DNA of 64,000 bases from Curvularia clavata. Lineage: Eukaryota. A model generated the notes under the pieces. It had not been told where the DNA came from and ran no database searches. It saw nothing but the letters and a program-made list of their open reading frames with translations. The stretch spans positions 4,340,001-4,404,000 of the forward strand of contig CP089275.1 in NCBI GenBank assembly GCA_023920165.1, read 5' to 3'. The position numbers were made by a program, and so were the translations under genes. Shown here piece by piece: positions 13,150-46,044 of this stretch (the stretch's first letter is position 1; every line of letters starts with the position of its first letter).

Positions 13150-13268
13150 ACATACGACCATAGGCTCGAGGAAGCAGGATTCCCCGTTCGATCAATCATA
13201 CTTAAGCTCGAGACCGGTGGACTAGTAGTCAGGTGGGTGACCACTGGCGAATCCCCACTGTCGTATGT
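13150..13268 (+). rRNA. Dispersed 5S rRNA gene (divergent isotype)
   Basis: 119 nt ACATACGACCATAGG...TAGTAGTCAGGTGGGTGACCACTGGCGAATCCCCACTGTCGTATGT; helix I ACATACGAC/GTCGTATGT; followed by Pol III T-runs. Confidence 0.95.
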
Positions 13269-13283
13269 TTTTGCACTTTTTTT
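13268..13283 (+). terminator. RNA polymerase III terminator (T-runs) of the 5S gene
   Basis: TTTTT directly at the 5S 3' end, followed by a second longer T-run. Confidence 0.75.
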
Positions 13284-41243: not shown

Positions 41244-42375
41244 TCATCCACTCATCTCCACGTCCTGCGCTTTGCGCTTCACCCCACCCTCGCTGCTCTC
41301 CATTTGTCCTTGGAACTTGGCCTGGACGGCTTCGAGCAGGACTTCCTTGACTACTGCGAGGCTGCCTACAGCCGCATGTGTGGCTCCTTCAATCAGCGCC
41401 TCGGGCTCTGCGCCAACATCTCCCTTCATCCACATCTCGGTGATTTCGTCTCTTGAAGCCAAATATCCCACTACGCATGCTGCCACCACCTCCTTGTGTT
41501 CCGCAGGACAAGGGTCCAGTATCCTAGCCAGCTCCTGCTCATTTTTCGATGATGGATTCCGTACCAGTGCTGCCACGCCACCACATACTACATCCACGCA
41601 ATCAATCCCTGCGTCGGTTATGGCCGCGCTGGCAACAGTTATGCACCCTGCCAAAACATTCAGCAGACCCCAGCCGCTTCCAATCGCACTGCCTTCGCTT
41701 GCCAGATCCCCCCACCAGCCATCTTCATCGCCCTCGAGAATCGTGACTACAACCTCCACGCCACTCTTGGGCCATCTTTCGCCAATGATGACGCCTCGTA
41801 ATGCCGTCTCTAAATGCACTCCCAGATCACGTTCTGTTGCGTCGCGTAGATAACCTCGCCGATGCCGTGTCGCAAACGGCGCAAACTTGACAGTAGTGGT
41901 AAGGAGGAGTGACGGACTAAAGGGCGCGCTGCGAGGTAGGGGCTTTGGACCTTGTATCGACGCCGTGATCTTCAGCGATGAAGTTGGTGCGATCAAACTC
42001 GTTTTGGGCGCAAGCGAAGACGATGGTATCTCAAGGTACGCAGATCCAGACGCAGAAGGTATGATTGATGTTTGGAGGACTGCGACGAATGGTTAGCAAG
42101 CGAAATCAGCGTAGTGGGTGCTTGCTGAGCACCACGAAGCTAGTGAATTGCTCCCTCGGAGCAAAACACCTCAATTGAGCGATCGTGTTGCTCCTAGAAG
42201 CACCGATGGAGGAGCTTGGCAACTCACAGATCTTGCGGAGCTCATTCGGGCCTCTTGATCTTGTCGGCCGCAACTTTTCGACATATTGTGGCTCTCTAAT
42301 AGTGCGCGCGAATATCGGCGCGCTTGTTCCGCCACTGGGCGCATTGTTTCTTCGCTTGTCGATATTTGCAGCCAT
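41244..42375 (-). CDS. MTR3: Exosome RNase PH-like subunit Mtr3
   Basis: DKRRNNAPSGGT..ELRKI|FLQTSIIPSASGSAYLE, GPKPLPRSAPFS, VKFAPFA, ERWPKSGVEVVVTILE, DAGIDCVD; intron 42080-42227. Confidence 0.88.
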
Positions 42376-42589
42376 TTTGCGTGCGTGGGGTTATGTGAAT
42401 GTTGGTGTTGCTGGGATTGTGGATGATCTCATGGTGGTAGACGCGCAAATTATGCATGACTAAGCTGCAGATCCGCGCCAAGAGTTCGTTCCTCAAGCTC
42501 AATTTTCCTTCGCGTCTGGACGAACTTTCTTTCTCACCACACTGCAACGCTCGAGGTAAGCCACCACCCCATTTTCTTCGCACCCAATC

Positions 42590-42666
42590 TTTCATGATTG
42601 ATACCCTTGAAATACGTTCTTGTGATCTCAAATGAGCTTTGAACACATGCACCACCCTCTGATCTC
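42590..42666 (+). ncRNA. snR55: Box C/D snoRNA snR55/U33 orthologue (18S Um1269, yeast numbering)
   Basis: Box C-like ATGATTG at 42594; box D CTGA at 42659; guide CATGCACCACC complementary to 18S GGUGGUGCAUG; the D+5 rule selects the U equivalent to U1269. Confidence 0.85.
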
Positions 42667-42762
42667 GTCTTTATCAGCTTCTGGTTGTACGACAAGCTTT
42701 GCGACTATAGCTGACCTGATTTCAGATGATAGAGCACCCACAATCTCGCAACAGTGCGCAGT

Positions 42763-42985
42763 CACTACGATGAGCCTGCCCGCAATATGCTAGCGACGCA
42801 TCTCAGTTGTCGGTTGTCTAGTCGCGCAGGGTGGCTCGAGCGATTGGATATGAGCATGGAATCCACTTGGACATGGAGAGTTTCGCTGTGCATAAGCTGC
42901 TATTTCAGCATGTTTGTTTGAGAACTCCAGTCCAATGTGGGCCATGGTTCATCTGCACTCCCTGCGAGACCGACCCTGAGCGTAT
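42763..42985 (+). ncRNA. Unassigned long intronic C/D-like structured RNA A
   Basis: ACGATGA at 42767 and CTGA at 42976, TACG/CGTA near the ends, two internal hairpins; lies in intron 2 of the snoRNA host. Confidence 0.5.
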
Positions 42986-43066
42986 CCATGCTATACTAAC
43001 CTACTGTTAGCAGCAAGCTCAGGCACTAACAATTGGTAAGTCGTCTCCTGCACTCCTACAACCTTC

Positions 43067-43147
43067 TTTCATGATGAACGTATTATTTCAGTTCTGCTTC
43101 CGAACTACAATGTGGAAGCTATATACCGCTTACCTTTATCTGATATC
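43067..43147 (+). ncRNA. snR61: Box C/D snoRNA snR61/U38 orthologue (25S Am1133, yeast numbering)
   Basis: Box C ATGATGA at 43071; D' CCGA at 43100; box D CTGA at 43140; guide CAGTTCTGCTT complementary to 25S AAGCAGAACUG. Confidence 0.87.
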
Positions 43148-43305
43148 GCTTTACTCTTTGCTTGTTTGATCAGCACTTCTCATAGACACTGCTGACAATT
43201 CAATCAGACCGCACAGCTACACAGCACAGCTCATCTCATGTATTCTGTTCAATGGTAAGCACTTCAACACCCTCCCCGCGCGCTAGGAAGAAAACTAGTC
43301 TATCC

Positions 43306-43521
43306 ATTCAATGACATCTGTTGCCGGGTCACCCTCCCACACTCTACTGGTCTTGACTGGAATGACGGGTTGTGGAGTTGCGGCACTGGCTTGTCCAGCG
43401 CTGCGTAATTGTGGTCTTTGAGCTGAAAGTTATGGCAGTCCGTCTTGGGCTGCCGCAACCAGAGGCCAGGTGATAGGGGTTGATTTAACACGGCTTTCTG
43501 AGCACAACGCCTTCTCTGAAT
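43306..43521 (+). ncRNA. Unassigned long intronic structured RNA B (C/D-like)
   Basis: ATTCA/TGAAT terminal complementarity, degenerate C-like ATGAC, terminal CTGA and several GC-rich stems; lies in the 309-nt intron 4 of the host. Confidence 0.5.
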
Positions 43522-44374
43522 ATTTTACGGGATTACAGCGTGTGCATGACTAACGGCGCTCAGATCACAAAGTGCAATAACAGCTTTACGGCTCGGCCCA
43601 TGAATGACACCGAGGGGTAGGATGATGGGAGTGCGTGGATTGGTCAGTAGCCTAGATGTAATCAATCACCTCGAAACGCGATTGCCTGTTCAAAATATGC
43701 ATACATGTTACGTTCCGTGTTACGTCTGTGTTCCTCAACGAGACGTTTGTAGCTGTGCTACGTGATCGGCTCCACAAGCCAACTGTTAGTACCGTTCGTT
43801 GTAGTTGCGTCCACTGGCTATGGTATCTGCCACACGACCTTGCAATGACGGGCGCATGGATACTGAAGCTCGGTGCTCTGTAAAGTGTATGTATTGGCGT
43901 TTCTACTCCGTCGAATTTCCGGGGATACGTACCTCCTGTCCATCATTGCTCTGAAACGGGCATTACTAGTCAGCTTGGCTTAGCTTCACGCCCCCGGGCA
44001 TCTTGCAAAGTGTCCGAAACACAACGATAAACGTTCACCATATTGTCAGGCCCGCGCATCGAATCCATTGACTGGTGCTATTGCTGCCAGACGCAGTCGA
44101 CCATCGACGGCTCATTTAAACTTTAGGGCAGCCTTGGCGACTGGTCCCTAGGCCAAGCCCGTACCGGAGTTTACCAAAGACGCGCAACCCTTCCATTGAT
44201 CCTACAACCCACTCTCTTCTCGTCGCACACCTTACGGCCGATTGCACTTCTCCCCTCACGGTATAGGGGAGAACAGAGCATCATTGTTTCCTGGCGCAGC
44301 CGGGCACCCTGGCAGGTCTTAATTGACCACGGTTTCAAAGGGACCGATCCTTATCTGGTACCCGTCCTACACGA

Positions 44375-46044
44375 ATGCTTCCCACGTACTCGACATCCAA
44401 GGGGAAAATGCATCGCCATGCGTTTTCCAACGGGGCGTATCCCTCCCAAGGAGGAGGTACTTTTTCTATCCAGCCTCACAAGTACGTCCACCACTGCCAT
44501 GCACAGCGCAAGTAAAGTGCGGCATCATCGCACCGCACCTCCTATACCTTCACGATTCCCTAGGGCCTTATTCTGACTTCCATTGTGTCTGCAGGTTCCA
44601 GCCTCGGTCACAACCTGCCCTCCGACGGCGAAGGACACTAATTCAGCGTCTGTTGCTGGTTGGGTCGCTTTTCTTTACGGCCCTCTTCTTTTTCTTCCCC
44701 AACCTACGACCAAACCTGGGCTCCGGACCTCTTAGCTTGATCACTTCGAACGGTGACACGCAACTCGAGACGGTGCGATATTACGATTTGAACAATGTGC
44801 AGGGCACAGCGAGGGGTTGGGAGAGAGAGGAGCGGATACTTCTATGTGCTCCACTGCGAGACGCATCACCGCATCTGCCCATGTTCTTCAGTCATCTCAA
44901 GAACCTCACATACCCGCACAATCTCATTGACTTGGCATTCCTAGTCGGAGATTCAAAGGACAACACCCTTGCGCTTCTTACTGAAAAGTTGGAAGAGCTA
45001 CAGGCCGACCCAGACCCAAAGCAACAATTTGGTGAAATTTCAATCATGGAAAAGGACTTTGGACAAAAGGTCGATCAGAACGTTGAGAGTCGTCACGGTT
45101 TCGCCGCGCAGGCCAGCCGCCGAAAGTCGATGGCGCAAGCCCGCAACTGGCTTTTGAGTGCTGCTCTGCGGCCTACGCACAGCTGGGTATACTGGAGAGA
45201 CGTGGACGTGGAGACTGCTCCATTCACTATTCTCGAGGATCTCATGCGCCACAACAAGGATATCATTGTACCCAGTATGTTCTAGTCCCAATAACGAGGA
45301 CAATTGTTGCTAACGTGCTCTAGACGTCTGGCGACCACTTCCGGACTGGCTCGGCGGAGAGCAGCCTTACGATCTGAACTCATGGCAAGAATCTGAAACC
45401 GCGCTTGCTCTTGCCGATACGCTCGATGAGGATGCAGTCATTGTAGAGGGTTACGCCGAGTATGCAACCTGGCGCCCACATTTGGCCTACCTTCGTGATC
45501 CATACGGTGATCCAGACATGGAGATGGAAATCGACGGCGTTGGTGGTGTCAGTATCCTCGCAAAAGCCAAGGTCTTCCGCGCCGGTTGCCACTTCCCTGC
45601 GTTCAGTTTCGAGAAGCATGCCGAGACAGAAGGATTCGGCAAGGTAAGGCATTATTCCTCATTTCTTAATAGCACGCTAACATTTCACAGATGGCCAAGC
45701 GCATGAAGTTCTCAGTCGTAGGTCTACCCCACTACACCATCTGGCATCTTTACGAGCCCAGTGTCGACGACATCCGGCACATGGAGGAAATGGAAAGGGA
45801 GCGCAAGGCGAAGGAGGCTGAAGAAGAAGCCAAGAAGGCCAAGGAAGCTAAGATTAAGGAATCTTTCGACGAAAAGAAGGGCGATTGGGAGAAGGAAAAG
45901 GCCGCCGTCCAGGAGCTGATTCAAAAGTCGAAGAACGAGGCCAAAGAGGAAGAGCAGACAAAACAGGAGGGGACCAAAGACGAGCCGAAGAGGGAAGAAG
46001 CCAAAGAAGAGAAGGCAGCAAAGAAAGAAGAGGGCCAATCGTAG
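44375..46044 (+). CDS. ANP1: Mannan polymerase II subunit Anp1 (GT62)
   Basis: FSIQPHK|FQPRSQPALRRRR plus TM anchor; HNLIDLAFLVGDSKD, ARNWLL, WRDVDVE, YDLNSW, ETEGFGKMAK, LPHYTIWHLYEPS; three introns; start at 44375 or 44408. Confidence 0.9.

Follow-up and report, generated by a model that had tools for sequence, protein, structure and literature searches.

The question raised by this locus is what a 309-nt intron on the + strand of the window (the whole 64,000-nt stretch of Curvularia clavata DNA that was analysed) carries, and what its product might do in the cell. A preliminary description had placed there, at 43306-43521, an orphan, multi-branched RNA of non-canonical anatomy, either a distinct snoRNA or an ncRNA not yet described. 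We consider it quite probable that this intron, the third seen in its host, yields an orthologue of Neurospora crassa Nc CD53 of about 220 nt that guides the methylation of U2285 of the 25S rRNA in a SNORD17-like manner.

The intron itself was borne out: it runs from GTAAGCAC to GCGCTCAG between GT..AG borders, has a branch-point-like ACTAAC at 43549-43554, and a joint that skips its 309 bases is present in contigs of three of four public runs (X1, X9 and X14). It had been numbered as the fourth, but is the third seen in the four runs, because 42726-43035, inside which no joint was found in their contigs, is exon; further introns of the host, rare or upstream, may exist beyond these three. If the RNA named as the first orphan was located in that 310-nt exonic stretch, it is doubtful. 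The host and its introns comprise the following features:

42556-42725, + strand: intron 1, with a GT..AG joint in one of four runs; houses snR55
42594-42668, + strand: snR55/SNORD33-type snoRNA (Rfam SNORD33, 21.5 bits, E 0.85, below threshold)
43036-43207, + strand: intron 2, with a GT..AG joint in all four runs; houses snR61
43066-43146, + strand: snR61 snoRNA (Rfam RF00476, 50.5 bits, above the gathering threshold of 45)
43255-43563, + strand: 309-nt GT..AG intron, the third seen in the non-coding host transcript

With a longest ORF of 45 codons in its spliced stretch, the host is the non-coding transcript of fungal snoRNA cluster II, and the CD53-like RNA is the last member of its snR55-snR61 series. 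Run X3 skips 53 bases at 43651-43704 with CT..AC ends, a sign that a transcript of the opposite strand may have an intron immediately downstream of the host. Head-to-head with the host lies an ORF at 41244-42092 (- strand), which from its translation we take to be an RNase PH-type exosome subunit, and the gene downstream, at about 44560-46044 (+ strand), is presumably Anp1/Van1-like, again judging from its translation. A dispersed 5S rRNA gene was also detected in the window at 13150-13269 (+ strand, 75.5 bits). In its non-coding host, with one snoRNA per intron and snR55 followed by snR61, the locus resembles the cluster snR57-snR55-snR61 described for fungi, and snR57 is missing, as stated there for Euascomycetes (Luo et al. 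2013, PMC3596301). The running text of that article, as distinct from its Figure 1, names no member after snR61, whereas the window has the CD53-like RNA in that position. The guide of the snR55-type RNA resembles that of Nc CD34, and Nc CD53, CD34 (snR55) and CD38 (snR61) are all listed on Neurospora chromosome IV (PMC2780460).

Homologues were collected by a scan of metagenomic sequence with an snR61 pattern, which gave at least 118 fungal loci, at least 80 of them with long flanks. A model (R1) trained on the window plus 29 long homologues matched 50 of 80 long-flank loci among the matches listed, with E 0.003 or better and always downstream of snR61; for the 29 distinct training sequences a match is built in, and short forms of 145-185 nt are among the remaining matches. 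The structural analyses below use an alignment of 30 rows, and the tallies of boxes and targets use 43 sequences (42 distinct homologues, among the matches listed, and the window), the homologues having been picked by the guide 8-mer. The near-identical loci L020 and L027 also align with the window by blastn (E 1.1e-5 and 3.2e-5), and splice-site patterns, loose ones used without a control, flank the RNA on both sides in 30 of the 42 homologues. The short forms (L011, L021, L025, L037, L038, L040, L047, L059, L060, L072, L079 and L116) keep box C, the guide, D', GGCU and box D and have lost most of the internal domain. Two loci, L054 and L060, have an snR57-like guide upstream of snR61 and a CD53-like RNA downstream; given the reported loss of snR57 from the cluster in Euascomycetes, they may come from fungi that do not belong to Pezizomycotina. 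We also observed tandem duplication of snR61, in separate introns, in L038, L072 and L054, and in L009 and L080 an snR55-snR61 spacer similarly long to that of the window (about 440 nt vs about 180 in most loci), which aligns poorly with it.

The alignment of the homologues (A1), the model R1 and a match by eye to Nc CD53 together form the basis on which a mature RNA of about 220-225 nt is predicted, with these elements:

43280-43504, + strand: predicted mature long box C/D snoRNA, putative Nc CD53 orthologue, its ends inferred from the boxes
43285-43291, + strand: box C AGGAAGA, degenerate in this species, located by the homologue alignment
43297-43300, + strand: AGTC, which may pair with GGCT at 43492-43495 as the 5' side of a 4-bp stem
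43302-43310, + strand: D' antisense guide ATCCATTC(A), invariant in A1
43311-43314, + strand: box D' ATGA, from the alignment
43480-43486, + strand: probable box C' TTGATTT, its TGA (43481-83) invariant in A1 and 17 nt before box D
43498-43501, + strand: box D CTGA, conserved in A1

With a box C near the 5' end, a box D near the 3' end, an internal D'/C'-like pair and an antisense guide, the RNA has, as far as its sequence can tell, the makeup of the box C/D class. Its anatomy is thus less unusual than had been supposed, since the C, D', C'-like and D set is recognisable, although box C is indeed degenerate in this species. Across the 43 sequences the box C column reads CTGATGA in 12, ATGATGA in 11, GTGATGA in two and other variants in 18, and the D' column reads ATGA (18), ACGA (9), TTGA (7), CTGA (5), ACTA (3) and CCGA (1), ending in GA in 40. 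By alignment the RNA starts about 25 nt upstream of the interval first proposed and ends about 17 nt before its end, so the degenerate box C that had been noted at 43311 is box D', and the true box C falls outside that interval. The ATTCA and TGAAT once read as the ends of the RNA are a coincidence, the former (at 43306) being the end of the guide and the latter (at 43517) lying past box D. Three copies of CTGA are present, as had been remarked, but their number is within chance (mean of 1.48 in shuffled sequences, with three or more in 163 of 1000), and only the copy at 43498-43501 is conserved.

The public runs bear on the product to a limited extent. Contigs of X1 and X3 still contain intron 3, so that cover of the intron is no proof of a free RNA. 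The oligo-dT run X14 has a 212-nt contig at 43289-43500 (depth of 25.4 vs 4.2 for the spliced host) and a contig of X9 begins at 43281; such contigs show neither the ends nor the levels of an RNA, and we take them as a weak hint of a stable one.

Near the 3' end, the sequence suggests a 4-bp stem between the D-side GGCU and the AGYY just 5' of the guide. The four pairs of AGTC with GGCT can form in 41, 43, 43 and 41 of the 43 sequences; the changes are one-sided only, with no compensatory change among them, and the stem does no better than permuted partners (469/500). The D-side element has no common target in a scan of 18S-ITS-25S and U2, where its best site ranks top in 11 of the 43 sequences; rather than serving as a guide, this region probably folds back on the bases just 5' of the D' guide.

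Between D' and C' lies a domain whose structure is apparent in the comparison of homologues. Single-sequence folding is no better than that of shuffles (z of -0.61 on the + strand and +0.26 on the - strand), and over the 30 homologues the median z is -1.0, with values below -2 in 6/30. All four stems proposed in the preliminary description are present in the sequence: TGCCG 43322-26/CGGCA 43381-85, CTCCCACACTC 43334-44/GGGTTGTGGAG 43367-77, TGGTCTTTG 43412-20/CAGAGGCCA 43460-68 and TGGCAGTCC 43433-41/GGGCTGCCG 43447-55. Two of them covary in the 30 sequences, namely the arm CTCCC../..GGAG of CTCCCACACTC/GGGTTGTGGAG (100% and 96% of cells paired, with changes on both sides in 2/4 and 4/6 pairs) and the hairpin TGGCAGTCC/GGGCTGCCG (91% paired, with changes on both sides in 8/9 pairs). 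The other two fail in the same alignment, TGCCG/CGGCA with 55% of cells paired and TGGTCTTTG/CAGAGGCCA with 65% and a both-side change in one of nine pairs. In their place stands a helix of 43326-31 with 43412-17 (93% paired, both-side changes in 4/6 pairs), and the revised domain is laid out as follows:

43317-43477, + strand: structured domain between D' and C', with a basal stem and the helix 43326-31/43412-17
43334-43377, + strand: long arm (100%, 96% and 96% of cells paired) with an apical hairpin at 43347-43360
43433-43455, + strand: hairpin with the conserved apex CGTCTTG at 43441-43447, CGTYHTG in 30/30

The structure first proposed has 81.9% of cells paired and a covariation of 0.44 over the 30 rows; the revised one reaches 86.8% and 0.583, vs 0.269 in shuffled alignments (0/500) and 0.10-0.16 with slid partners, in a test that favours it because it was drawn from the same 30 sequences. 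Covariation among homologues, whose absence together with that of a stable product had been named beforehand as refuting the proposal, is present. The basal stem, at about 43317-25 with 43469-77, fits poorly (54-68% paired), in an uncertain register that RNAalifold places at a shifted position. In the long arm, a 2x6 internal loop (TA 43345-46 and AATGAC 43361-66) reads NA and RAKGAY in 30/30, and on structural grounds it could be kink-turn-like. More speculatively, the CGUYHUG apex of the second hairpin might pair with the UAACG that comes right after the target, the full match occurring only in the CGUUAUG form (6/30); short guides often come with additional pairing sequences in the D'-C' interval (PMC3116282).

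Judged from these elements, the intronic RNA appears to be the orthologue of Nc CD53 and so not a new molecule, having been known since 2009; of the earlier reading, the long structured intronic snoRNA, separate from snR45 and U13, stands, and its undescribed status does not. Nc CD53 (EU780977) is a 212-nt RNA recovered as a cDNA clone and detected by Northern blot, and is listed as "orphan" and "intergenic" (Liu et al. 2009, PMC2780460). By eye only, its published sequence shares with the window RNA a box C followed by the 14 bases AGUCUAUCCAUUCA and then D', common internal motifs, the 3' arrangement UGA..AA.ACGGCUU..CUGA, and a similar length (212 vs about 222 nt). They differ in box C (AGGAAGA in the window vs AUGAUGA), in D' (AUGA vs ACGA), in the middle hairpin and in setting, intronic here and intergenic in that list. 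In the main text of Canzler et al. (2018, PMC5824354) the corresponding family CD_53 stands alone among C/D families with a length of 200-300 nt, a range that includes the window RNA at about 225 nt but exceeds the short forms, and is given as having no unambiguous target; its best prediction, a weak one, is column 25S-3500 (ICI 0.71), the same column as the snR86 pseudouridine. No Rfam family matches the window RNA.

Although published as an orphan, the RNA has, on the evidence, a single 25S uridine as its likely target. The guide ATCCATTCA pairs with positions 2281-2289 of the species' own LSU in a 9-bp duplex, and there is a single GAATGGAT in the 8-kb rDNA stretch of this genome. Under the rule that places the target at the fifth base from D or D' (PMC3116282), A43306 faces U2285, which is the top site for all 43 guides in 18S-ITS-25S and U2 (mean score of 19.7 vs 15.0 for the next), a tally that is partly circular, since homologues were selected by the guide 8-mer, and so shows the uniqueness of the site and not independent conservation. 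Weaker 6-bp sites were seen in 18S, 5.8S/ITS and U2, and a motif search of U6 found no GAATGGAT. Genome-wide (32.4 Mb, 8 contigs), a search for another gene combining this guide with a canonical box C gave 0 matches, with a pattern blind to a degenerate box C and hence to this gene too, and ATCCATTCNCTGA was found four times vs two for the reversed control, which is chance level. The correspondence of U2285 with human 3818 fits the spacing of human methylated positions, 13/13 of which agree in base, vs 9/13 in the next best register. Its equivalents are yeast 2314, Chaetomium 2277, human 3818/3797 and S. pombe 2402, and to our knowledge the site is without a methyl group in S. cerevisiae. Human 3818(3797) is given as Psi-m, with SNORD17 and SNORA48 as guides (PMC5597630, PMC6182160, PMC6984369). 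In Chaetomium thermophilum, "Ym2277", by its label a 2'-O-methylated pseudouridine, is positive in all four method columns of Supplementary Table 2, columns that score pseudouridine, and is annotated as "close to PTC" (PMC12723226); m5C2241 of the same source, added to the 36-nt spacing measured in this genome, gives 2277. For S. pombe the only modification listed at 2402 (yeast 2314) is pseudouridine (PMC4605285). Nothing on the site or on the SNORD17 sequence was found in PMC8351944, PMC8817022, PMC12309372, PMC3025573 or PMC11880993. By complementarity, then, this one 25S uridine, U2285, is most likely the target of the listed orphan.

The pathway that we propose starts from what is established, i.e., the intron, its conservation, the boxes, the covarying structure and the complementarity, and from the listing of the site as methylated in another filamentous ascomycete, Chaetomium (PMC12723226). 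Splicing of the snR55-snR61 host, which is observed, would free intron 3, and trimming back to boxes C and D would leave an RNA whose stable accumulation is expected from its class and its orthologue. The C/D core proteins Nop1, Nop56, Nop58 and Snu13 would then assemble on it, as in other members of the class, the D' guide would pair with the GAAUGGAU stretch of the pre-25S rRNA, and fibrillarin would methylate the ribose of U2285 under the presumed guidance of the CD53-like RNA. A separate H/ACA RNA, Nc HACA_7/snR86-like according to Canzler et al. (PMC5824354), would pseudouridylate the same base. Against a guide count the length of the duplex, only 8-9 bp and shorter than usual, the ambiguous target call of Canzler et al. 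(PMC5824354), the lack of an Rfam match and the degenerate form of box C in the window RNA.

Four other explanations were weighed. It is improbable, although deserving of attention, that the same RNA and contact serve mainly to chaperone the folding of this pre-25S region, as with snR190 and U14, the methyl group coming from another guide or being incidental. Such a role would fit a 160-nt covarying domain kept although a form of 145-185 nt exists in other loci, the short guide, and the many non-canonical chimeras reported for human SNORD17 (bioRxiv 037259); however, the distance between guide and D' is exactly that needed to hit a site for which methylation is known in human and Chaetomium, and the D side has no other conserved rRNA complementarity. 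We find it distinctly unlikely that the true target is another RNA (snRNA, tRNA or mRNA) and that the 25S match is incidental: an 8-mer is short, weaker matches of 6 bp lie in 18S, 5.8S/ITS and U2, and the scan covered 18S-ITS-25S and U2, yet the 25S site scores best (19.7 vs 15.0), U6 lacks GAATGGAT, and the base concerned is a known methylated one. A guide for 18S cytidine acetylation of the snR4/snR45/U13 type is very hard to sustain. Like the window RNA, snR4, snR45 and U13/SNORD13 are long, structured box C/D RNAs of similar length, and the D-side ACGGC of the window copy is the complement of GCCGU of 18S helix 34; however, no more than 13 of 43 homologues retain ACGGC, CTTGTTAC is absent from 42401-43700, as the preliminary description had noted, and the window RNA has, in place of a conserved antisense element to 18S helix 34 or 45, a standard D' guide to 25S. 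The helix-34 antisense words are carried by a different RNA, the other Neurospora orphan Nc CD55, in whose published sequence they lie on both sides of the acetylation site and which may, on this ground, be the snR4 counterpart. Finally, an often-retained intron with chance hairpins and no stable product, which the folding scores (z of -0.61; median of -1.0 over 30 homologues) and the retention in X1 and X3 would allow, is very unlikely in view of the covariation (0.583 vs 0.269, 0/500) and a Neurospora orthologue that was cloned and detected by Northern blot (PMC2780460).

With a methylation guide as the preferred reading, the closest functional parallel is vertebrate SNORD17/HBI-43 (RF00567), with which the CD53-like RNA has a target uridine in common, a predicted one for the fungal RNA. 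SNORD17 is also unusually long (237 nt in human and 205 nt in Xenopus; PMC6984369), and its D' before nt 58, followed by a long D'-C' insert (bioRxiv 037259), recalls the fungal D', which is likewise near the 5' end. The GUGUUCUAC hairpin apex of the Rfam SNORD17 consensus aligns to the fungal CGUYHUG hairpin. The settings differ, SNX5 being the host in human vs a non-coding cluster for the window RNA, and the RF00567 model (gathering threshold of 45 bits) has no match in the genome or at the locus; on homologue L039 it gives 9.1 bits (E 4.3), one of ten chance-level matches, which is lost on a 61-base slice. What the two RNAs share is the target, the length and one hairpin apex only, as compared with the Rfam consensus and not with a vertebrate sequence. 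By target prediction the fungal RNA would thus work like SNORD17, and by the model test it is not a member of that family. The GUGUUCUAC element is in both the SNORD10 and SNORD17 Rfam models, whose targets are 10 nt apart (3808 and 3818), and may be common to long guides of this 25S region. No paper linking CD53 with SNORD17 was found, and the name SNORD17 is absent from the main text, as distinct from the online supplement, of PMC5824354. It is conceivable, if doubtful, that CD53 is a true SNORD17 orthologue inherited from the animal-fungal ancestor and lost in the two model yeasts, with an internal domain that has a second job; candidates for such a job may be extra pairing beside the target, coordination with the H/ACA particle acting on the same base, or chaperoning of the 25S region.

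The RNA has been in print since 2009, and the gain made here is a modest one, consisting of a target, a cluster context and a structure backed by covariation. The listed orphan acquires a well-supported predicted target when the weak prediction of 2018 is joined to the modification map of 2025. The RNA lends itself to a direct knockout test of a base close to the peptidyl-transferase centre that carries both modifications in human and not in S. pombe, and it bears on why such guides are so long. Were the common ancestry with SNORD17 true, filamentous fungi would serve as the genetic model of SNORD17 for which yeast is unsuitable.
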